A program made the position numbers and the translations under genes. A stretch of DNA of 64,000 nucleotides from Candidatus Opimibacter iunctus (lineage in GTDB: Bacteria; Bacteroidota; Bacteroidia; Chitinophagales; Saprospiraceae), in contig JADJVH010000013.1 in NCBI GenBank assembly GCA_016716665.1, forward strand, positions 38,824-102,823, written 5' to 3'. The notes beneath the pieces are model-generated. The model did not search any database, was not told the origin of the DNA, and was given only the letters and a program-made list of their open reading frames with translations. Below, piece after piece: positions 10,367 through 62,882 of the stretch. Every line of letters starts with the position of its first letter. Position 1 is the first letter of the stretch.

Positions 10367-10399
10367 CCCATTTTTCACTTTTCTTTTTTCGTTTTTCAC

Positions 10400-22111: not shown

Positions 22112-22759
22112 ATGCCAGAAGCACCGGATTACAACCAGGCCGCTGAAGTCTTCCGCAAGACTATGGAAGAGGCGCTGGCCAACATTGATGTGGTCAATGC
22201 CAATCTCAAGAAGGAACAAGAGAAAGCAATTGATATGCAGATTGCAGCCAAGGATGAATTCAACCGTATACAAAACGAGGCACATCAGATATCAGAAGCC
22301 TACATGGAGCAACACAGGAAGGAATATCTCGCTCAAATGCGTGATGAAATCTTGCTGGAGGTGACCAGGAAACTCATATTGGAAGAAGTACCATCAGATA
22401 AATTGAAATCCGCATTGGAACTCCCTCCCAAGATTCTTGCAGACGCGTGGTTTTATGTCGGTTTTGAAAAACTTGATGATCATTACATTGGACATGTTGG
22501 CTATATCAACCAGGGGCGTTCCGGTACGGTCATCTTTTATCGAAACGATCTGACGATCCATTTTCCTTTTGAGTTTGGTGGAGGAGAGACCCTGGCGATT
22601 ATTGATGTGCCCACACCAGAGAACTGGGAAAGGGAAACAAAGACTTTACTCGCTGACCGACAGGTGATCCTCGAGTTTGTGGCAAAACGCGTCATCAGGG
22701 ATCAGGCTTCAAAGTGCACCTACTTCATAGGTCCTGACAAAATCCTGATCCAATATTGA
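22112..22759 (+). CDS. Hypothetical cytoplasmic protein (coiled-coil N-terminal half, globular C-terminal half)
   Basis: 215-aa ORF with an ATG start. I recognise no motif. Confidence 0.5.
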   Translation: MPEAPDYNQAAEVFRKTMEEALANIDVVNANLKKEQEKAIDMQIAAKDEFNRIQNEAHQISEAYMEQHRKEYLAQMRDEILLEVTRKLILEEVPSDKLKSALELPPKILADAWFYVGFEKLDDHYIGHVGYINQGRSGTVIFYRNDLTIHFPFEFGGGETLAIIDVPTPENWERETKTLLADRQVILEFVAKRVIRDQASKCTYFIGPDKILIQY

Positions 22760-23157
22760 AACCACCCATCCTCATGGTTATGAATCGATTTTTTCATTTT
22801 CTGGTTGGACCCGAATTATTGTGGTTGTGTTTTTATCTCCTTGTATTGGTCATCATCAAGGCATCAGGCTCTCCTGTCAAATCCATGGATGGATTCTGGG
22901 AGTCTACAGCTTGGTTTGTGCCTTTGCTGCTGATCCCTCTCACGTTTATGCTGTATTACGCTCCGGGTGTGATCAGGGACTGGATGTTGCTGAGGATATG
23001 GATAGTCGGACTGGTCGGCGGACACTATGTGTTAAGCAAAAGTTTGGCAGCATACACCGAGCAGGGCCCTGGCATTGGTACGGCTTATATCATGGGCATG
23101 GGTTTATTATTTTTCCTCCTGATCGCCGGATCAATCTGGGCTAAACTCAAATTTTAG
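22756..23157 (+). CDS. Hypothetical membrane protein (about 4 TM); start uncertain (TTG 22756, ATG 22774 or 22780)
   Basis: Overlaps the stop of the preceding ORF, so it is probably co-transcribed. Hydrophobic throughout. Confidence 0.5.
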   Translation: MKPPILMVMNRFFHFLVGPELLWLCFYLLVLVIIKASGSPVKSMDGFWESTAWFVPLLLIPLTFMLYYAPGVIRDWMLLRIWIVGLVGGHYVLSKSLAAYTEQGPGIGTAYIMGMGLLFFLLIAGSIWAKLKF

Positions 23158-23372
23158 CGATTTTGTCCTCACACGGGACTATGGCATAGAGTGGGGCAGA
23201 CAAAACTTCCACAACGGCCTCGTATTCCTCGGCTTCCTCTCCTACGAGCAGTGCCTCACGAGGACAGACCTCAATCACGCAACCATGACCAAGGAAATCC
23301 TTTCCTCCATCCGAAATGAAATCTTATCAGCAGATTGATGCCACATCCCCCTCAAAACCCACTCACCCTCAA

Positions 23373-23693
23373 CTGGTAGCTGGTGGCTGATAGCTGATAG
23401 CAAATTCTTAATCACGCCCACTCTCACTCCCACACTACCGGTAGCTGGTAGCTGGTAGCTGACGGCTGTCAGCTCAAACCAAATCCCTATCCCCCACATA
23501 CTCAGATCTCACACAACTGGTAGCTGGTAGCTGGTAGCTAGTAGCTGGTAGCTGACGGCTGATAGCTGACGGCTTTTAGTCAAATCCCTAACACACTCAC
23601 ACTCTAACACACACCACTGGTAGCTGGTAGCTGGCGGCTGATAGCTGACAGCTGATGGCTGATAGCTGATAGCTGACGGCCGATAGCTCAAAC
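23373..23693. repeat. Higher-order repeat: four heptamer arrays (CTGGTAG then CTGAYRG), each preceded by a related 32-37-nt CA-rich leader
   Basis: The arrays are 23373-23400 (4 copies), 23438-23479 (6), 23517-23579 (9) and 23617-23693 (11). The leaders are caaattcttaatcacgcccactctcactcccacacta, caaatccctatcccccacatactcagatctcacacaa and tcaaatccctaacacactcacactctaacacacacca. The last heptamer, ctcaaac, contains the fumC stop codon (tca at 23688-23690). Confidence 0.95.
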
Positions 23694-25070
23694 CATATCT
23701 TCCGCCCTGACCCACTTATCAAACTGGTCAGCAGTCAGATACCCAAGTGCAATTGCCGCTTCCTTCAGCGTCGTATTCTCCTTATGCGCTTTCTTGGCGA
23801 TTTCAGCAGACTTGTCATAACCGATATGCGTATTGAGTGCAGTCACCAGCATCAGCGAATTGTCAAGATGCATCTTGATCCGTGCATGATTAGGCTCGAT
23901 ACCGTCAACACAATGTTCTACAAAGCTGTGACATGAATCAGCAATCAACCTGGCAGATGTCAGGAAGTTAAAGATGATCACCGGCTTGAATACATTGAGT
24001 TCAAAGTGTCCTTGCATAGCACCTACATTGATGGCCACATCATTACCGATTACCTGGGCCATACACATAGTCATAGCCTCAGATTGCGTTGGATTGACTT
24101 TGCCTGGCATGATCGATGAGCCGGGTTCATTGGAAGGGATGTTGATCTCTCCTATGCCACTTCGAGGTCCTGATGCAAGCAAGCGGATGTCATTGGCTAT
24201 TTTATTGAGCGAAACCGCTACTGTTTTCAATGCACCATGCGCCTCCACGATGGCATCGTGGGCGGCCAGGGATTCAAATTTATTTTTTGCAGTGACAAAC
24301 GGATAGCCGGTCAGTTCTCCGATTTTCTTAGCTACTTTCTTATCGTACCCTTTTGGTGCATTGAGGCCTGTGCCTACCGCGGTGCCACCAAGGGCAAGTT
24401 CGGTGAGATGGGGCAGGGTATTCTTGATTGCTTTTATACCATGTTCAACTTGTGACGCATAGCCACTGAATTCCTGGCCTAGTGTCAAAGGCGTTGCATC
24501 CATCAGGTGTGTACGGCCTATCTTGACAATAGCCTTGAATTCCTTTGCCTTTGCATCAAGCGATGCATGCAGGAGTGTCAACGCAGGAATGGTATGCTCT
24601 ACGAGATAGCTGAAGGCAGCAATGCTCATCGCGGTCGGAAAGGTATCATTGGAGGATTGCGACTTATTCACATCATCATTGGGATGCAGATATTTCTTAG
24701 CATCATCCAGTTTGCCTCCCTTGATGACATGGCCACGATTGGCGATCACTTCATTGAGGTTCATATTGGATTGTGTACCTGACCCCGTTTGCCATACGAC
24801 CAGCGGGAAATGATCATCGAGTTGACCTTTGGAGATTTCATCACACACTTTGCCGATCAGTTTGGCTTTGGGTTGAGGCAATACCCCGAGATCCATATTG
24901 ACCAGTGCGGCAGCCTTTTTAAGGACCGCAAATGCCCTGATGATTTCGATAGGCATACGGTGGCCACCGATTTTAAAGTTGTCTTTGCTTCGTTGTGTTT
25001 GTGCGCCCCAATATACATCAGCAGGTACCTGTACAGGTCCCATACTGTCTTTTTCTATTCTGTATTCCAT
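23688..25070 (-). CDS. fumC: Class II fumarate hydratase
   Basis: 460 aa. [16 protein letters not shown] signature. N-terminal [28 protein letters not shown]. Confidence 0.95.
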
Positions 25071-27911: not shown

Positions 27912-27940
27912 TAGCTTATTCCATAAGGTACTATCCCTTA

Positions 27941-28002
27941 AATCCACACACCTGCACTCATCTCACACCTCTTACTGTCTCACTGTCTTACCCTCTTACA
28001 CA
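27941..28002. repeat. CA-rich leader (aatccacacacctgcactcatctcacacct) plus a tandem 8-mer array of 4 copies (cttactgt ctcactgt cttaccct cttacaca)
   Basis: The octamers occupy 27971-28002. The array ends 2 nt from the TAA (tta at 28005-28007) of the S9 peptidase gene. The same family occurs at 33174-33205 and 42751-42782. Confidence 0.9.
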
Positions 28003-28004
28003 GA

Positions 28005-32893: not shown

Positions 32894-32914
32894 GTTGAGG
32901 TCTCCTGCCTCGAT
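32894..32914. repeat. C-TCCT-G loop hairpin, copy G1
   Basis: gttgagg tctcctg cctcgat; the stem includes G:U-type pairs. Confidence 0.7.
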
Positions 32915-33070: not shown

Positions 33071-33092
33071 ATTGAGGTCTCCTGACCTCAAT
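33071..33092. repeat. C-TCCT-G loop hairpin, copy G3 (perfect 9-bp stem)
   Basis: attgaggtc tcct gacctcaat. Confidence 0.85.
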
Positions 33093-33152: not shown

Positions 33153-33205
33153 CCCACACCCACACCCACACCTCTCACTGTCTCACTGTCTTACCTTCTT
33201 ACACA
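33153..33205. repeat. CA-rich leader (cccacacccacacccacacct) plus a tandem 8-mer array of 4 copies (ctcactgt ctcactgt cttacctt cttacaca)
   Basis: The octamers occupy 33174-33205 and end 2 nt from the TAA (tta at 33208-33210) of the thioredoxin-like gene. Confidence 0.9.
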
Positions 33206-33207
33206 GT

Positions 33208-33705
33208 TTAGTTGCCTCCAAGCGCCGCCACTTCTTTCTCCACTGCATCATGCAGGTAATACCCCATTTCAAGCACCTGCGCCGCTGTCGCCGGGCCTTC
33301 GTGGCGCTTCATGATCTTTCCTTTTCCATCTACAAACAATAGGGTGGGAAAGGTGGTTACGCCATAGCGGTCAGCGAGTTCAGCTTCCTTGACAGGGCCG
33401 CCGACATTGATCTTGTAGTTGACAAAATGGTTGTTGAAGTAGGAGGCCAGTTCATCCTGGGTGTATACGTACTGATCCATTCGCTTGCAGGACTCAACCC
33501 ATGGTGCATAGAAATACATGAATACGGGCCGCTGCATCAGGTCGGCAAATTCGAGCAAGTAGCCCAGGTTGGCACAGTCAGCAAACTGCAGGTCCTGTGA
33601 ACAGGAGGCAGGCCGCACAACTACCTTGGTGTAGGGCTTTGGCGAACAGCACAGGAAGGCGCAGAGGGTTATCCCCGCAAAGACGGACTTGGAAGATAGG
33701 ATCAT
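33208..33705 (-). CDS. Thioredoxin-fold lipoprotein with a degenerate active site
   Basis: Signal/lipobox-like N-terminus (...LCAFLCCSPK). FMYFYAPWVESCKRM stands in place of WCxxC. FPTLLFVDGKGK is typical of the thioredoxin fold. Confidence 0.5.
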   Translation of the reverse strand: MILSSKSVFAGITLCAFLCCSPKPYTKVVVRPASCSQDLQFADCANLGYLLEFADLMQRPVFMYFYAPWVESCKRMDQYVYTQDELASYFNNHFVNYKINVGGPVKEAELADRYGVTTFPTLLFVDGKGKIMKRHEGPATAAQVLEMGYYLHDAVEKEVAALGGN

Positions 33706-39105: not shown

Positions 39106-39125
39106 TTCAAGTCTCCTGACTTGAA
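39106..39125. repeat. C-TCCT-G loop hairpin, copy F1 (perfect 8-bp stem)
   Basis: ttcaagtc tcct gacttgaa. The left flank gatcgttca is shared with the copy at 62854. Confidence 0.85.
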
Positions 39126-39136
39126 TGCCATATGTT

Positions 39137-39154
39137 TTGCGTCTCCTGACGCGA
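39137..39154. repeat. C-TCCT-G loop hairpin, copy F2
   Basis: ttgcgtc tcct gacgcga (7 bp including one G:U-type pair). Confidence 0.75.
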
Positions 39155-42673: not shown

Positions 42674-42701
42674 GTAGGGGTTCAATATTTTGAACCCCTA
42701 C
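42674..42701. other. Perfect 12-bp-stem palindrome (gtaggggttcaa tatt ttgaacccctac)
   Basis: Read directly from the sequence. It lies in the divergent hemW / M36 intergenic region. Confidence 0.85.
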
Positions 42702-42742: not shown

Positions 42743-42750
42743 CGCCGCCT

Positions 42751-42782
42751 CTCACTGTCTCACTGTCTTACTGTCTTACACC
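42751..42782. repeat. Tandem 8-mer array, 4 copies (ctcactgt ctcactgt cttactgt cttacacc)
   Basis: Same family and same order of variants as at 27971-28002 and 33174-33205. Confidence 0.9.
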
Positions 42783-56411: not shown

Positions 56412-59400
56412 TTAGAGCTCCCCGATATACTCATTTAACGAACCATCCTTCTCCAGCTCCAGTTTCTTCTTCAACCTGTACTTACTCTGTTCCACCCCAT
56501 TGACCGTGATATTCAGGATAGCAGCGATCTCGGTATTGGAAAATCCCATCCTTATAAAGCAACATAACCGGCTTTCGGTAGCCGAGATATGCGGATGCCT
56601 GAGGTGGAGCTTATGGACAAAGTCCTGGTGGACCTGATTAAAGGTGAGCTGAAACTCATCCCAGTAGTTTTTCTGGGTCAGTTCGTTTTCGATGGATCTG
56701 GTCAGGCGGTGCAACTCCCGGGACTTGGGCTGATGTTCATCCGTTTCAATCTTCCGGATTTCTCCCTTGAGGTCCTCGAGAAACTGGTTTTTATGCGCGC
56801 TCTGCAGGACGGAGGCGCTGAGCTGGGCCTGTTTATTCAGGATGTCCTTCTCCAGGTTTTCATTCTGTAAGCGCAGGATTTCTTGTTCTGCCGCCATGGC
56901 ATGCTGCCGAAACCTGAGCTTTTGTCGGTTCAGCAGGAATTGGATCATCCCCAGTACCACTATAACACCAGCACCTATCGTCGCCAAAATGAACCACCAG
57001 GTGGTCCAGAACGGTGGCGAGACAATGATCTTCAAAGTGCGGGGAGCCGTATTCCATGCTCCATCACTATTGGAAGCCTTTACTTCAAGGATATACTCAC
57101 CGCCGGGCAATGAAGAATAGTTTGCAAAACGCTGTTTGGGCCCCACGAACCGCCAGGTAGTATCAAACCCCATAAGACGGTAAGCAAATTGGTTTTTGTC
57201 AGGTTGAGAATAATCGGTGGTCGTGAAGCTGAACTGTATCCCTTTGTCCAGGTAGGAGAACCGAACAATTGTTGTAGAATCATTGAGCGGACCGGAAAGG
57301 ATAGTCCTGCCTTCAAACAAGCCAATAGGGATGGATTGGTTGGAGAGACTGAATTCTGTAAAGACAACTTTAGGTGCACTGGTATTTTCGCGCACCTGGT
57401 CAGGCAGGATGAAAGAATAACCATTAGTACTGCCCAGGATCAAGCGCCCGTCATTCAGCCTCAGTGCGGCACCGGGATTGTACTGGTTGTTTTCGAGAAA
57501 CGGCTCCGACCCTACTTTGATAAACCGACCCTCCTTTTTGTTCCATCGCACGATCCCTGCCTGAGTGGTGATCCATAGGTATCCTTGCGGACCCTGTACA
57601 ATACTATTGATCATATTGGAAGGCAGGCCATCTTCAACCGAATAAGCGTGAAATGTTTCATTGGCGGGTTGGTATGCATTGAGTCCGGCGTTTTCTGTTC
57701 CGATCCATATCGTGCCCTCATCATCCTGGTAGAGGCACCGGATTTTTTCACTTGAGAGGCTGAGCGTGTCGTGAGCATTATGGTGATATTGAGTGATATG
57801 GAATGGGGTAGTGGAATGATCGATTCGGCTCAGGCCATTATTTTCTGTGGCAATCCAAAGCCATGGGCGGGTTTTGTCAAGTAAGATGTCAATGACCTGA
57901 GTCCCGGAGATGCTGTTTTTATTATTCGGATCAGGTTGAAAACGCATAAATGTGTTTTGACCCGGTTTCAGATAACTAACCCCTGCACCTAATGTACCTA
58001 TCCACAAGCCTCCATCTGGTGCAAGTTCAAGATCCCAGACATTGTTATGACTCAGACTTGTCAGGTCACCCGCTATATTTTGAAATTGCTTCACGATCCC
58101 TGCACCTGGTTTATACAGATACAATCCTCGGGCAAATGTCCCAAGCCAAAGGTTGCCATCGGGAAGTGAAACCAGGCTCGTGATCACATTCAGGCCTGGT
58201 GGATGATTAGCCGATTTTTCAATGGAGACCAGCCGTACAGGATTCTTTCGCACATCCAATTGAAACAACCCACCGCCATCGGTGCCCAGCCAGACATTCC
58301 CATCCTTGTCCTGGTCGAGGCAGAGGACAGAGCGTAGGCCCTCCAGTCTTTCCAGCGCATACTGCCGGTCCATGACGAATGGAGGGAAGATAGTTTTATG
58401 CAGATTAATACCACCATTGAAGGTGCCTATCCATAGATTATTGGACGAATCAAACATCAGGTCGTACAGCGCGTCTGAATTGAGCGAGTTGAGAAACGCT
58501 GGTTGGTATCCGTAATGCTTCCATTCATCCGTCGATGGATCAAAATAATTAAGGCCACCTCCATCTGTTGCGATCCATAATTTTCCATGTGCATCGGGTA
58601 CCAGGTCTGTGATCCTTCTATTGCTCAGTCCTGCACCGGTCTGCGGATTGGGTAGAAACCGGTCAATGACCTTGAGCTGTTGCAAATCAATCTCATACAA
58701 GCCGCTGCCTTCCGTGCCGACCCAGAGATTGCCATTGGTGCCCAGGCAAAGCGATTTAGCGAATCCATCCATGTCATTCCCATCATCGCTATGTATGGTG
58801 TGCAAAGAATCTGTTGACCAGTCAAACAAACTGATCCCCTTGCCTGCTGTTCCGATCCATATCCGACCACTGGGATCTTCCTGAAAATCAAAAACAAAAT
58901 CATTGTTGAGCCTCCTGTTGTCTGGCGCACACGTCGTGCAGAAATGCGCGATCTTTTTATACTCCCGGTCAAACACAATCGTACCGGCGTTGTAGGTACC
59001 AAGCCAAAGATTCCCCCGGCTATCCTGGAATATGGATCTCACCGTTATGGTATTCCAGTCAACAGTGTTGTCTTCTTTAAAAGGGAAACGAAGAAACCTC
59101 CCCGTAGTTCTTTCCAACACGCTGACACCACCATTGAGATGGCCTATCCAGATATTACCCGCCTCATCATTCCATAGCGTCAGTATGGATTGACTTTTGA
59201 TTGCATATGGATTCTTAGGATCCGGCAGGAATACCTTAAACTCATATCCATCAAACCGGTTCAGTCCAAACCGGGTACCTGCCCAGATCATCCCCAATTG
59301 ATCTTCGAGCAAGGCATGTACCGTGGTGTAGGACAGACCATCATCCACGGTCAGGTGATCAAACGAAAAAGTCGATGCATTCCGCTGACCGGCCACATGT

Positions 59401-59465
59401 CCACACAGTATCAACAGGCTGAAGAGGCTTGGAAGGTAAAGGGAAGTAGGGCGCGATCTGGTCAT
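56412..59465 (-). CDS. Y_Y_Y / two-component-regulator-propeller sensor fused to a LuxR-type HTH (one-component PUL regulator)
   Basis: 1017 aa. It contains many WIGT/WLGT propeller repeats, a Y_Y_Y-like Ig domain (GEYILEVKASNSDGAWN), one TM helix (WWFILATIGAGVIVVLGMIQF), a coiled coil, and a C-terminal HTH ATESRLCCFIRMGFSNTEIAAILNITVNGVEQSKYRLKKKL. Confidence 0.85.
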   Translation of the reverse strand: MTRSRPTSLYLPSLFSLLILCGHVAGQRNASTFSFDHLTVDDGLSYTTVHALLEDQLGMIWAGTRFGLNRFDGYEFKVFLPDPKNPYAIKSQSILTLWNDEAGNIWIGHLNGGVSVLERTTGRFLRFPFKEDNTVDWNTITVRSIFQDSRGNLWLGTYNAGTIVFDREYKKIAHFCTTCAPDNRRLNNDFVFDFQEDPSGRIWIGTAGKGISLFDWSTDSLHTIHSDDGNDMDGFAKSLCLGTNGNLWVGTEGSGLYEIDLQQLKVIDRFLPNPQTGAGLSNRRITDLVPDAHGKLWIATDGGGLNYFDPSTDEWKHYGYQPAFLNSLNSDALYDLMFDSSNNLWIGTFNGGINLHKTIFPPFVMDRQYALERLEGLRSVLCLDQDKDGNVWLGTDGGGLFQLDVRKNPVRLVSIEKSANHPPGLNVITSLVSLPDGNLWLGTFARGLYLYKPGAGIVKQFQNIAGDLTSLSHNNVWDLELAPDGGLWIGTLGAGVSYLKPGQNTFMRFQPDPNNKNSISGTQVIDILLDKTRPWLWIATENNGLSRIDHSTTPFHITQYHHNAHDTLSLSSEKIRCLYQDDEGTIWIGTENAGLNAYQPANETFHAYSVEDGLPSNMINSIVQGPQGYLWITTQAGIVRWNKKEGRFIKVGSEPFLENNQYNPGAALRLNDGRLILGSTNGYSFILPDQVRENTSAPKVVFTEFSLSNQSIPIGLFEGRTILSGPLNDSTTIVRFSYLDKGIQFSFTTTDYSQPDKNQFAYRLMGFDTTWRFVGPKQRFANYSSLPGGEYILEVKASNSDGAWNTAPRTLKIIVSPPFWTTWWFILATIGAGVIVVLGMIQFLLNRQKLRFRQHAMAAEQEILRLQNENLEKDILNKQAQLSASVLQSAHKNQFLEDLKGEIRKIETDEHQPKSRELHRLTRSIENELTQKNYWDEFQLTFNQVHQDFVHKLHLRHPHISATESRLCCFIRMGFSNTEIAAILNITVNGVEQSKYRLKKKLELEKDGSLNEYIGEL

Positions 59466-59582
59466 AATTGCCTCGGGTCACTATCGTTGTATCGAGGGGG
59501 AAAATAGGGGATTTTGGTGGGATGGGGAGAGGGGTTTGACAGATAGATCAAGTCCGAAAGAGGAGGTCATGTGTTTTCGAGA

Positions 59583-59688
59583 ACTGTGAGTTGTGAGCTG
59601 TGAGTTGTGAGTATGTCACGAGTCAGACGTGAGAGTAAGTGGCGAGAGTAAGTTGTCAGAGTATGTGGCGAGAGTCAGTCGTGAGTGA
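59583..59688. repeat. Degenerate tandem array: GTTGTGA heptamers (59583-59610), then GTGAG/GTAAG/GTCAG-rich words that resemble the reverse complement of the CTYACTGT octamer family
   Basis: actgtga gttgtga gctgtga gttgtga gtatgtc acgagtc agacgtg agagtaa gtggcga gagtaag ttgtcag agtatgt ggcgaga gtcagtc gtgagtg. Confidence 0.75.
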
Positions 59689-59701
59689 CAAATTAAATTC
59701 T

Positions 59702-59750
59702 CTGGCAGCTGGCAGCTGGTAGCTAAACGCTGATAGCTGACAGCTCAAAC
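59702..59750. repeat. Heptamer array, 7 copies of the CTGGYAG then CTGAYAG family, ending in CTCAAAC, which contains the stop codon of the O-methyltransferase gene
   Basis: ctggcag ctggcag ctggtag ctaaacg ctgatag ctgacag ctcaaac. The stop is tca at 59745-59747. Confidence 0.9.
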
Positions 59751-60380
59751 CCTCCTCGCTACACTCAATCCGTCCCGGATTGGCAACATGAGGACCTCCA
59801 CCCTCGGATCCCTATACAACATCTCATTGTACTTATGTATCACCCGCGCATCCACATCACTCCGGTCATAGACCACCTTGCCACTCCAGAGGACATTGTC
59901 TGAGAGAATCAATCCACCCGGACGGACATGATCAATGATGGCTTCGTAGTACTCAGCATACTCTTGCTTGTTGGCATCGATAAAGACCAGGTCCCAGGTC
60001 TCGGTCCTTTGTGACAAGAGTGCCTGTGCTTTCCCCATGAGACTTTCCACACGATCCGTCACCCCGGCCATAGCAAGATGTTTCTTGATCAGGAATGCAT
60101 ATTCCGGATTCGCTTCGATCGTGACTACCTTACTTTCTGCTGAAGGGCTTAAACCACGCACGAGGCAAATAGTCCCATAGCCTGTGAACGTCCCAATCTC
60201 CAGCACATTCCTTGCCTGCAGCAAAGAAGTCATCAATGTCAGGAAGGCCCCTTGCACCCGGCCACTCAGCATCTGAGGCGCAATGGTATGCAGGTGCGTA
60301 GACCGCTCTACTTCATGGAGCACAGGGTCATGTACATTGCTGTAGTCGTCAGTATATTTTTGTATTTCAGTGGCGAGCAT
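59745..60380 (-). CDS. Class I SAM-dependent O-methyltransferase (caffeoyl-CoA OMT-like)
   Basis: ATG at 60380 gives MLATEIQKYTDDYSNVHDPVLHEVERSTHL... The SAM motif is VLEIGTFTGYG, with FIDANKQEY further on. The longer track ORF (to 60536) overlaps the EamA gene and is not needed. Confidence 0.75.
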   Translation of the reverse strand: MLATEIQKYTDDYSNVHDPVLHEVERSTHLHTIAPQMLSGRVQGAFLTLMTSLLQARNVLEIGTFTGYGTICLVRGLSPSAESKVVTIEANPEYAFLIKKHLAMAGVTDRVESLMGKAQALLSQRTETWDLVFIDANKQEYAEYYEAIIDHVRPGGLILSDNVLWSGKVVYDRSDVDARVIHKYNEMLYRDPRVEVLMLPIRDGLSVARRV

Positions 60381-61284
60381 AACGGTTTTGCCAGATAGGG
60401 TGAATGATGACAGAGGCAAGGATGATGCTTGCCCCGATATAGAATGAAGTATTGAGTTCTTTTCGGTCGTTGAGCAGTAGCAGGGCCATGAAGATTCCAT
60501 ACACGGGTTCGAGATTGATGACCATGATGGAATCATAAGCGGTTACGGATCTCACGGCACGTGTGCAAAGTACCCAGGCTACACATGTGCAGAGTAGTCC
60601 CAGTATAAGGAGATACACCAGGTCTGTGGCATCCGGCCAGAATTGATCAACGCCAAAAATTAATTGCTCACCACCAAGCCATACGCACATCGTCAGCCAG
60701 GCTCCGGCCATCTGCATCATGGTCATGTGCTCTGCATCTACTTCCATGATCCATTTCTTCTCAAGGCTGGAAAAGATGGCGAGTATGAGCGAAGATGCTA
60801 TGCCCAGGATGATACCTGACAGGATATCTCCTTCAGCCCGACCGGCAATCAATACGATACCGGGAATGACCATCAGGCCAAATACCACTTCATGTCTGAC
60901 GAGCGGACGACCGGTGATCCATGGCTCTATCCATGCCGTGAAAAATGAAATGGTGGCAAAGCAGATCAGCGCCGTTGAGGCATTGGCGAGTTTGATCGAA
61001 CCAAAGAAGCAAATCCAGTGAATACCCACCATTGCTCCAAGCAGGTAGATTTTTTTTCGATCAAGGACAGATGCTTTGTTAAACCGTCGTCTGAGCAAGA
61101 GGTAAAAGGCTATACCCAGCCCGGCTATAAGCGTCCGCCACCATACTAACACGCTGGCTGACAGGGAGATGAGATCCCCCAGGATAGCCGTACCGGCAAG
61201 CAGCATCACCGCAATATGGAGATCGATGTAGGCCCTTTTTAAACTCACCGGAGGAATTGTTGTTATCTTCGCACAAGTATACAC
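60367..61284 (-). CDS. EamA/DMT-family transporter; start uncertain
   Basis: About 10 TM helices in two EamA-like halves. Its stop overlaps the OMT start by 14 nt. Confidence 0.6.
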   Translation of the reverse strand: MYTCAKITTIPPVSLKRAYIDLHIAVMLLAGTAILGDLISLSASVLVWWRTLIAGLGIAFYLLLRRRFNKASVLDRKKIYLLGAMVGIHWICFFGSIKLANASTALICFATISFFTAWIEPWITGRPLVRHEVVFGLMVIPGIVLIAGRAEGDILSGIILGIASSLILAIFSSLEKKWIMEVDAEHMTMMQMAGAWLTMCVWLGGEQLIFGVDQFWPDATDLVYLLILGLLCTCVAWVLCTRAVRSVTAYDSIMVINLEPVYGIFMALLLLNDRKELNTSFYIGASIILASVIIHPIWQNRYARH

Positions 61285-61327
61285 AAATAGGCAAGATCCT
61301 GTCGTTTACTCAACCAATCCTCTGTAC

Positions 61328-61804
61328 ATGTCCATTCATATCGGCGATATAGCCCCTCCGTTTTCTCTGTATTCATCTGAAAAGCAACTCGTCAATCTTT
61401 CTGACTTTAAAGGAAGGAAAGTTGTACTGCTGTTTTTTCCACTCGCCTTTACGAGCACATGTACAAAGGAGATGTGCTCTACCCGCGATGATATCGAGAT
61501 GTATAATGCCCTCGATACCGAAGTACTCGGGATATCGATCGACACACCACAAAGCCTTGCCAGGTATAAGCAGGATCTCGGGCTCAATTTTACATTACTC
61601 TCAGATTTCAACAAGGAGACCATACGGGCTTATGATGCAGTATATGAGCAATTCGGCCACAATATGCGTGGCGTAGGAAAGCGAGCCGCTTTTGTCATAG
61701 ATGGCCAGGGTATAGTCCGTTACGCAGAGGTACTGGAAAATGCAGGAAATCTGCCGGATTTTGAGGCTATTCAAAATGCACTTCGTAACTTTCAGACAAC
61801 ATAA
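61328..61804 (+). CDS. Peroxiredoxin (AhpC/TSA family)
   Basis: GRKVVLLFFPLAFTSTCTKEMC contains the peroxidatic Cys motif. 158 aa. Confidence 0.8.
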   Translation: MSIHIGDIAPPFSLYSSEKQLVNLSDFKGRKVVLLFFPLAFTSTCTKEMCSTRDDIEMYNALDTEVLGISIDTPQSLARYKQDLGLNFTLLSDFNKETIRAYDAVYEQFGHNMRGVGKRAAFVIDGQGIVRYAEVLENAGNLPDFEAIQNALRNFQTT

Positions 61805-61847
61805 TTACCTTTGCATCATTATCTATCACCACTTAAACCCATCTCCC

Positions 61848-62153
61848 ATGTTGTACGATAGCCTTTCCAAAGAACAGGAGGACATACTCGTTGAAGAGTT
61901 GACCACAGATGGTGAACAAACCCAGCTCATCGTTCTCAATGATGACTATAACACATTTGACTGGGTCATTGAATGCTTCATGGAGGTGCTCAATCATACC
62001 AGTGAACAATCCGAGCAACTCGCCTGGATCGTCCATACCAAAGGCCGCGCCAGCGTCAAGCTCGGCACACTCGAAGAATTGAAACCCTACAAGGATGCCT
62101 TGACAGACAGGGGACTCAATGCGATCATCGAACACGAGAAAGTGAACAGGTGA
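61848..62153 (+). CDS. clpS: ATP-dependent Clp protease adaptor ClpS
   Basis: ATG at 61848. LIVLNDDYNTFDWVIECFMEVLNHTSEQSEQLAWIVHTKGRASV matches the ClpS core. It is followed by aat. Confidence 0.85.
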   Translation: MLYDSLSKEQEDILVEELTTDGEQTQLIVLNDDYNTFDWVIECFMEVLNHTSEQSEQLAWIVHTKGRASVKLGTLEELKPYKDALTDRGLNAIIEHEKVNR

Positions 62154-62163
62154 TCTCCAGCAG

Positions 62164-62847
62164 ATGCCTGTATTTGCCCTTGATGACGAACTGATTTTTC
62201 CACATCCTTCCCTTCGTGAACCTGATGGCCTCATGGCTGTCGGTGGTGATTTATCTCCGCAACGATTGTTACTGGCCTACCGATGGGGTATCTTTCCATG
62301 GTATCACGAAGGCCAACCCATTCTTTGGTGGTGGCTTGCACCCAGGCTCATGGTCAGGCCTGAAGATGTACACGTATCCCATTCGGTGCGAAATGTGATC
62401 AATAAGAAAAAATTTGCGGTGACATTCGACAGTGATTTCACAACGGTCATGAAGCGGTGCGGCTCTGTCAACCGGGCAGGGCAGGAAGGCACGTGGATCA
62501 TGCCGGAGATGATTGATGCCTATACCTCACTGCATCAGCTTGGTTATGCGCATTCAGTAGAAGTGTGGGAAGGCGACCAACTCGTTGGTGGGTTGTATGG
62601 TATTGCCCTCGGCCGTATTTTTTTTGGAGAAAGTATGTTTGCTGAGAGCCCCAATGCCTCAAAAGTTGGATTTGTATTTTTTGCACAACATCTCGCTTCA
62701 CTTGGATTCCTGTGGATCGATTGCCAGCAGGATACACCGCATATGCGATCCCTCGGAGCAGACCTTGTGGAGGAAGAAGATTTCATGCATATCCTTCGCG
62801 AAAATCAACTTCATATGATGAATCATAAACCCACGACACTTTTGTAA
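62164..62847 (+). CDS. aat: Leucyl/phenylalanyl-tRNA--protein transferase
   Basis: FPHPSLREPDGLMAVGGDLSPQRLLLAYRWGIFPW...VEVWEGDQLVGGLYGIALGRIFFGESMF is typical of Aat. Confidence 0.9.
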   Translation: MPVFALDDELIFPHPSLREPDGLMAVGGDLSPQRLLLAYRWGIFPWYHEGQPILWWWLAPRLMVRPEDVHVSHSVRNVINKKKFAVTFDSDFTTVMKRCGSVNRAGQEGTWIMPEMIDAYTSLHQLGYAHSVEVWEGDQLVGGLYGIALGRIFFGESMFAESPNASKVGFVFFAQHLASLGFLWIDCQQDTPHMRSLGADLVEEEDFMHILRENQLHMMNHKPTTLL

Positions 62848-62861
62848 AAAGGAGATCGTTC

Positions 62862-62882
62862 AGCGTAGCCTCTGGCTGCGCT
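62862..62882. repeat. Hairpin related to the C-TCCT-G family (loop TCT), copy K1
   Basis: agcgtagcc tct ggctgcgct, with the left flank gatcgttca shared with the copy at 39101. Confidence 0.6.

Follow-up and report, generated by a model that had tools for sequence, protein, structure and literature searches.

The window analysed here is a 64,000-nucleotide stretch of DNA from Candidatus Opimibacter, an uncultured wastewater genus (PMC9304909). Within it, two convergent genes enclose the locus of interest. fumC (23688–25070, minus strand) encodes a class II fumarate hydratase of 460 aa, whose relatives are found in Saprospiraceae and thereby exclude a cyanobacterial origin of the window, and a gene on the plus strand (22780–23157; open reading frame from 22756) encodes a small membrane protein of 125 aa when counted from the second ATG. 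The intergenic region between them measures 530 nt (23158–23687), as the earlier note on this DNA had claimed, and most of it is taken up by a block of four heptamer arrays, A1 to A4, extending about 350 bp past fumC. The unique part of the spacer (23158–23338) is 82% identical to that of a sister species, similar to the flanking genes, and may be under constraint, perhaps as a 3' UTR or a small RNA.

All arrays are given on the plus strand. A1 (23373–23400) consists of four heptamers, two CTGG-type (CTGGTAG, CTGGTGG) followed by two CTGA-type (CTGATAG, CTGATAG). A2 (23438–23479) contains six: CCGGTAG, CTGGTAG twice, CTGACGG, CTGTCAG and CTCAAAC. The nine units of A3 (23517–23579) are CTGGTAG three times, CTAGTAG, CTGGTAG, CTGACGG, CTGATAG, CTGACGG and CTTTTAG; they group as five CTGG/CTAG-type and three CTGA-type units with CTTTTAG last. 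A4 (23617–23693) comprises eleven: CTGGTAG twice, CTGGCGG, CTGATAG, CTGACAG, CTGATGG, CTGATAG twice, CTGACGG, CCGATAG and CTCAAAC, the last of which contains the fumC stop. In one register, and provided that the degenerate end units are included, the counts of 4, 6, 9 and 11 put forward earlier are correct. A fifth array of the window, A5 (59702–59750), follows the same order with CTGGCAG twice, CTGGTAG, CTAAACG, CTGATAG, CTGACAG and CTCAAAC. Its last unit holds the TGA stop of an O-methyltransferase gene (59745–60380, minus strand), the product of which is 100% identical to a Candidatus Opimibacter protein. Upstream of A5 lie GT-rich arrays (TGTGAGT etc.; 59585–59701, plus strand), and their reverse complement resembles the spacers of the fumC locus.

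The arrays were recovered independently by TRF and by direct-repeat search. Specifically, the two-unit pattern CTGRYRGCTGRYRG matches the 64-kb window 21 times against 0.04 expected, and every match falls in the A1–A4 block or at 59702–59750. A1–A5 are thus head-to-tail 7-nt units in excess of chance, that is, heptanucleotide SSRs or STRRs. Within A4 (23617–23688), a 21-nt super-period was observed with GG at the end of every third unit, and TRF gives 84% matches at period 21 and 76% at period 7; 21 nt correspond to three heptamers, and equally to seven codons or two turns of the helix. In A1, the second unit gives rise to GCTGGTGG (23379–23386), the Chi octamer of E. coli, a motif that may not be that of Bacteroidota, and the common array junction GCTGGTAG is one base off it. 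The octamer in A1 is probably a coincidence.

It is very unlikely that the arrays act as protein-binding or recombination sites on double-stranded DNA, either as CAGCTG-like palindromes or through Chi-like GCTGGTGG/GCTGGTAG. An AGCT/CAGCTG core does recur every 7 bp, A1 carries the exact E. coli octamer and local amplification implies recombination; however, a single octamer is readily coincidental and belongs to E. coli, and the other array families of the window have unrelated units.

Period 7 dominates the short tandem repeats of the 64-kb window: it accounts for 370 bases in 13 segments, where shuffles give about 8 bases, and periods 4–6 and 9–12 are near zero. Since 290 of these 370 bases are intergenic, the over-representation is mainly non-coding, as in SSRs. 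TRF finds about a dozen array clusters with differing units across the window. Our literature search returned no paper describing heptamer repeats of this kind in Saprospiraceae. Additionally, the ordered octamer string TCTCACTGTCTCACTGTCTTAC occurs at 27970–27999, 33173–33202 and 42750–42779, always on the plus strand and with 0–1 mismatch (0 expected). Its conserved core is about 36 nt, two copies stop 1 nt short of a minus-strand stop codon, and the string represents a small dispersed repeat with quasi-tandem units. A 22-nt ordered string of octamers is common to all three loci, which indicates that ordered arrays are copied or rebuilt here by some route.

Spacers and the composite module

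Spacers of 36–37 nt with 0–2 G each precede the four arrays, all taken on the plus strand. L0 (23336–23372), CA-rich and G-poor, lies before A1, where the sister species has TCTTCAC/TTTTCAC arrays. L1 (23401–23437) and L2 (23480–23516) are 37 nt long with one G each, and L3 (23580–23616) is 37 nt long without any G. Anchored on the array start and aligned without gaps, L2 and its closest relative L3 are identical at 27/37 positions (P<0.0002), L0 and L2 at 21/37 (P=0.003), and the remaining pairs at 17–19/37 (P=0.02–0.07); gapped alignment scores for L1–L3 agree with these ungapped identities. The direct-repeat search, in turn, detected a composite module either as three copies of 96 nt (67–72% identity) or as four copies of 57 nt (68–75% identity), the copies being spaced 65, 79 and 100–107 nt apart. 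The block is therefore a higher-order tandem repeat of four copies with homologous linkers. These linkers have diverged to 46–73% identity while the starts of the arrays stay alike: the first two units were scored the same across A1–A4, with one-base variants listed at A1 unit 2 and A2 unit 1. Because the composite unit was recovered independently and the spacers align, the repeat of repeats is real. The earlier note had described a leader-plus-array unit iterated four times, with inter-array segments that are diverged copies of one leader, and both statements are borne out by spacer homology beyond composition over 36–37 nt and by the independently found module repeats.

The spacers also show local similarity, again beyond composition, to other CTCAC/ACTCACA-type arrays of the window, and L2 matches the reverse complement of 59585–59701 at 16/18 positions (P<0.003). 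In view of this likeness and of the TCTTCAC/TTTTCAC arrays in the sister species, we read the leaders as a decayed second heptamer family; judged by their sequence, they would be decayed members of the ACTCACA/CTCAC-type family that is common in the window. The notion that they form a special sequence class is thus not upheld, nor is the idea that a dispersed element has the leader as one of its own components. No G-poor leader stands beside any of the 186 CTGNNAG arrays in the metagenome loci (0/186), a search of the 64-kb window found the leader at the fumC locus only, and near A5 the CA-rich relative is inverted. The array without a leader recurs at 59702 and in L208, a metagenome locus of a related species, with variable unit numbers. 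No inverted repeats of at least 20 nt were found in 23150–23760, and the window and the metagenome loci do not contain many unlinked copies with shared boundaries.

Unit order and array ends

In all five arrays of the window, units with G at position 4 precede all others, so that the claimed succession from CTGG-type to CTGA-type units is seen in every one of them. A random unit order is the wrong null here, since like units cluster under slippage. Under a null of two blocks in either order, five concordant arrays have a probability of 1/16, and this becomes 1/2 if A1–A4 are paralogues from one module. The earlier argument that slippage cannot yield ordered variants is not supported, as it is enough for a single module with two sub-arrays to have been duplicated and passed on.

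The order CTGG-type, CTGA-type, AGCTCAAA recurs at 59702–59750 and in L208 (93% FumC), where the array stands beside the stop of another gene. L208, L085 and L087 share the grammar of A5, namely CTGG-type units, an odd unit, CTGA-type units and then CTC...; the metagenome that yielded L085 and L087 is also the source of L212, a contig with a related fumC. Three mixed arrays adjoin a stop codon, and all of them have their CTGA end towards the gene. Local duplication alone is insufficient to account for an order that is found at unlinked loci and in relatives with its CTGA end stop-ward, and this recurrence is the main argument for a copied element. The order is not conserved everywhere, however: where metagenome arrays contain several units of the CTGA type, L166 shows the opposite order and L124 and L184 a mixed one. 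A scan of metagenome contigs with CTGGTAGCTGGTAGCTG yielded 120 loci, none of which shows homology to the window, and their G+C of 0.35 to 0.72 indicates that the CTGGTAG-type unit is widespread. A metagenomic count of 12 G-then-A against 2 A-then-G arrays was discarded, because most of the 12 owe their order to single terminal CTGA... units, which a search pattern ending in CTG forces.

These arrays might represent a small dispersed, possibly mobile element of Opimibacter-like Saprospiraceae, similar to REPINs or small dispersed repeats, a reading that we regard as improbable. The element would consist of a polar array, in which an odd loop unit separates a CTGG arm from a CTGA arm and AGCTCAAA forms the end, accompanied or not by a leader; it would be inserted in fixed orientation at stop codons, and the fumC block would be a local pile-up. 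The order and 3' end common to the fumC locus, 59702–59750 and L208 point in this direction, as do the grammar of L085 and L087 with an odd central unit, the hairpin loop that this unit forms, the CTGA-type array present at both convergent stops of L210 in gene-relative orientation, and the separate ordered octamer element found three times in 64 kb. On the other side, such an element would be without terminal inverted repeats, target duplications or a fixed length, the number of units varies from locus to locus, no association of leader and array is seen beyond the fumC locus, L166, L124 and L184 depart from the order, and the five to six loci are too few for statistics.

CTCAAAC, which the earlier note had seen at the end of two arrays, is indeed found at A2 and A4, but in A4 it is not a feature of the array. 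Read on the opposite strand, the A4 copy (23687–23693) is GTT TGA G: the final fumC codon, the TGA stop (23688–23690) and one further base. When the fumC sense strand is read in the register TCAGCTR, the stop appears as the variant TGAGCTA. FumC homologues end in ...DMI* or ...DMV*, which indicates that the C-terminus is native. The A2 copy is probably a duplicate of the A4/fumC junction: where A2 runs into L2, 12/13 positions agree with the final 13 nt of fumC, so that one duplication may have carried the fumC end inward. This junction is the sole site in support of such a capture. The window has exactly three copies of the 10-mer AGCTCAAACC, one each at A2, A4 and A5. In A4 it corresponds to the GTT-TGA of fumC, and in A5 it holds the Val-stop of the O-methyltransferase, whose ...RRV* end is also native; its presence beside another gene with a native end weakens the case for capture, and part of the similarity among the three ends may be a coincidence or a property of the array family. 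The broader idea that the leaders are a decayed 3' coding end of fumC was rejected, as whole-leader alignments are no better than shuffles (P=0.1–0.9). By eye, the anchored ungapped alignment of L1 with the fumC end gives about 13/37, which is chance level.

The same features bear on whether the repeats are coding, to which we give practically no credence. Heptad peptides such as PSAISYQ could arise from the minus-strand ORFs 23275–23499 and 23509–23715 or by read-through of the fumC TGA. The minus strand of the arrays is stop-free in all frames, two ORFs of 68–74 aa span the arrays, and the super-period of A4 equals 7 codons. Nevertheless, the ORFs overlap the fumC end and the G-free spacers, array length changes in steps of 7 nt, not 3, and FumC is complete without an extension. 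Moreover, the sister species lacks the block at its orthologous locus, which in more distant species is occupied by other arrays.

Orthologous loci, stop codons and folding

FumC proteins that are 99% identical belong to a different species, the sister species, with 89% nucleotide identity in fumC and 82–88% in the flanks. In the sister species, the stop is TAA, after which ATGAAAA/GTGAAGA heptamers extend over about 100 nt, and homology to the window resumes at TCTGCTGATAAG (about position 23338). In L210 and L211 (79–80% identity), TGA is followed directly by GCTAAGAGCTATCAGCTCTCAGCTGTCAGCTATCAGG, which is the CTGA-type family in the orientation of the window; these arrays have neither CTGG units nor leaders, and the convergent gene has an inverted copy directly at its stop. 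L212 retains remnants of a CTGA-type array together with hexamers, L213 has octamers, and L208 has about 600 nt of other compound arrays after fumC. More distant Saprospiraceae carry octamer arrays directly after the stop (L002, L007), and hairpin-plus-T terminators stand there in L006, L008, L011 and L012. At 79–89% fumC nucleotide identity, the post-fumC spacers thus hold different arrays, or a CTGA-type array only. This comparison indicates that the position of the arrays persists and their content turns over, and the four-module structure is specific to the lineage of the window.

Several further repeats were observed at these loci. In L210 (2997–3254) and likewise in L211, the CTGA-type arrays at both convergent stops form an inverted pair around a unique 170-nt centre, so that a read-through transcript could form a long-range stem. 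GTGAAAA/GTGAAGA heptamers, in gene sense, directly follow TAA stops, beside different genes and in more than one species of the clade (window 10369–10398; L207 5384–5480; L208 5384–5420; L085). In the spacer between ADH and the next gene (window 27912–28004; L207 871–1165; L208 about 1000–1130), three species keep the order of array types, namely CCCACAC, CTCAC-type, TCTTAC-type and ACAG plus stop, with varying units and copy numbers. A perfect palindrome, TAGGGGTTCAA-nnnn-TTGAACCCCTA, lies at 42674–42701 of the window and, with 96% identity, at a different locus in L208 (1090–1117); it may be a REP-like element. Small hairpins with the core GTCTCCTGAC and variable stem extensions are located at 33077–33086, 39111–39120 and 39141–39150, and with one mismatch at 32900 and 33003 (9 matches against 3.1 expected), and L087 has the similar motif GCGTCAGGAGACGC.

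Ten conspecific contigs, drawn from at least eight samples, align to window positions 57245–62880 with 99.4–99.9% identity and no gap, and the 285 nt holding A5 and the GT-rich arrays differ by one substitution among them. These gap-free alignments imply that such short imperfect arrays are not hypervariable on that time scale. As to the internal expansion and contraction claimed for the arrays, those between paralogous spacers do differ by whole heptamers, but rapid change is not supported by A5, where no indel was seen in 8–10 conspecific contigs. Short-read contigs of the clade often end in or near heptamer arrays (L001; L203–L205, L209, L213; the start of the L214 parent contig at about window position 33340), which suggests assembly breaks.

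Arrays lie 0–2 nt from, or over, the stops of seven minus-strand genes of the window (8861, 10400, 12976, 23688, 28005, 33208 and 59745); for the plus-strand genes in those spacers, arrays begin 25–190 nt past the stop. Among metagenomic (CTGGTAG)n arrays, 40/112 start where a same-strand ORF of 100 codons or more stops, compared with 41/625 random positions, and an opposite-strand ORF ends at the other array edge in 11/92 versus 18/625 cases. Arrays of this type, from many phyla, therefore start at stop codons about five times above chance. A stop-codon bias has also been reported for other heptamer repeats (PMC4692102). The excess of arrays touching stop codons could reflect function.

Each array alone is predicted to fold into one long imperfect hairpin on either strand, because CTGNYAG pairs with itself except at the central base. 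Relative to shuffles, array folds reach z −2.0 to −3.5 as DNA and −1.6 to −3.75 as RNA; for A4 RNA, the plus strand gives −32.9 kcal/mol (z −3.75) and the minus strand −24.9 (z −3.6). The plus strand of A5 has an RNA z of −2.5, its odd unit being the hairpin loop. The block as a whole behaves differently: its RNA is marginally better than shuffles on the plus strand (z −1.75) and less structured than shuffles on the minus strand (z +3.4). Folding of the transcribed strand, as the earlier note advised, thus supports single arrays as hairpins and yields no convincing global fold of the block. A search of 22700–24000 returned 0 intrinsic terminator sites, and the arrays are without T-tracts; clear terminators follow other genes of the window. 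Rfam 15 has no match in the window, the best hit being P26 with E=0.59 and 17 bits against a gathering score of 36.

These data bear on the proposal that the arrays are functional 3'-end hairpin elements, akin to REP/BIME or terminators, which would block read-through, protect mRNA 3' ends or insulate the two genes. We consider a dedicated role of this kind unlikely, and a generic 3'-end hairpin role possible on the basis of the predicted folds. For a dedicated role speak the single hairpin per array on either strand, the missing canonical terminator between genes that converge, in a window and a family where other genes and other fumC copies have one, the arrays after the fumC stop in the window, L002, L007, L207, L208, L210, L212 and L213, and the bias of metagenomic (CTGGTAG)n arrays to same-strand ORF stops. 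The near absence of G from the 37-nt spacers fits as well, since C-rich spacers without G could be extra Rho loading sites on plus-strand RNA. However, the post-stop arrays of relatives are unrelated in sequence and composition (GTGAAGA, AACGGCAG, CGACTGTA), which means that nothing sequence-specific is conserved. The weak or unfavourable fold of the whole region and the absence of U-tracts also tell against it, a hairpin does not require four copies, and a published study of similar repeats saw no regulatory role (PMC4692102).

Origin of the block and comparison with known repeats

Together, the results favour, as the probable reading, local amplification, by slippage and unequal exchange, of a higher-order tandem repeat whose components are two ordinary heptamer families. 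The block would be non-coding and, on sequence grounds, a local member of the known class of post-stop heptanucleotide repeats. One family would be the decayed, almost G-free ACTCACA/CTCAC type seen in the leaders and the other the quasi-palindromic CTGRYRG type with its AGCTG core. A single two-family module of 65–113 bp would have given rise to four tandem copies through unequal exchange, or slipped mispairing, between in-register arrays, and at least one duplication would have taken the last bases of fumC along. The arrays would then have been altered in 7-nt steps and homogenised by concerted evolution, and the spacers would have drifted apart; the shared order of unit variants would be inherited from the ancestral module. 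Hairpin formation by an array in single-stranded DNA or RNA may favour slippage, and the array hairpins could exert a generic effect at the 3' ends of both convergent genes. We infer duplication and slippage without a specific function.

A more far-reaching version, which we hold to be improbable, would make the ordered hairpin-forming heptamer arrays a distinct class of 3'-end element at stop codons in Opimibacter-like Saprospiraceae and perhaps more widely, in the order stop, TGAGCT, CTRTCAG, CTACCAG. Such elements would be placed or kept there in one fixed orientation, spread between loci by some copying mechanism and act on transcript 3' ends, with the fumC block as a four-fold amplification.

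The locus adds a clear example of heptamer repeats from an uncultured wastewater lineage of Saprospiraceae, in which arrays stay homogeneous while linkers decay and the position at the stop codon outlives the turnover of units across species. If the association with stop codons reflects function, it would amount to a widespread, unrecognised 3'-end signal; if it results from boundary-limited expansion, the repeats would be neutral filler. In practical terms, heptamer arrays break short-read assemblies.

The fumC block is not a new kind of element. With CRISPR arrays it has in common a leader-like sequence ahead of an array of direct repeats, the last of which is degenerate, but its units are of 7 nt, not 21–48 nt, it has no unique spacers, the 36–37-nt segments of A1–A4 being copies of each other so that the 'leader' itself is repeated, and its terminal unit is the stop of a gene. 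Like the higher-order repeats of eukaryotic satellites and minisatellites, it combines a tandem multi-part unit and variant polarity with concerted evolution of sub-repeats beside a diverging linker; unlike them, it is bacterial, tiny (four copies, about 350 bp) and situated at gene 3' ends. REPs are imperfect palindromes of 35–40 nt that occur in alternating orientation in hundreds of dispersed copies and are linked to RAYT transposases. The block resembles enterobacterial BIMEs/REP as a mosaic of short motifs with conserved linkers in a 3' intergenic position, often between convergent genes, that forms RNA hairpins, and differs from them in its 7-nt direct units, without inverted repeats or dispersed copies of the module.

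The closest parallels are found among heptanucleotide repeats, which have long been known in bacteria, as with the STRR heptamers of cyanobacteria, and have, to our knowledge, no accepted function. Long bacterial SSRs, including heptanucleotides, were described by Mrazek et al. 2007, as that work is cited in PMC4679880 and PMC4692102, and some bacteria have an excess of heptameric repeats (PMC4692102, PMC4679880). The GGGAATC/GGGGAYT repeats of Xanthomonas and Nostoc lie a short way downstream of the preceding ORF and differ among close relatives (PMC4692102). The fumC block shares with such SSRs head-to-tail 7-nt units, a period-7 excess and an intergenic position close behind an upstream ORF, and here too sequence and length differ between related species. 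Its unit, by contrast, is quasi-palindromic (CTGRYRG) and not G4-forming, and the Saprospiraceae host and the four-copy higher-order module at fumC set it apart. TAACTGA repeats, with 'larger assemblages' of mixed heptamers, are known from intergenic regions of Beggiatoaceae, Cyanobacteria and a few Bacteroidetes (MacGregor 2015, PMC4679880). That system likewise involves heptamers mixed with others in Bacteroidetes intergenic regions, 7-nt indels between strains and contigs ending in repeats (PMC4679880); it differs in its unit and in that most TAACTGA sets stand just upstream of start codons, whereas arrays of the fumC type abut stops.
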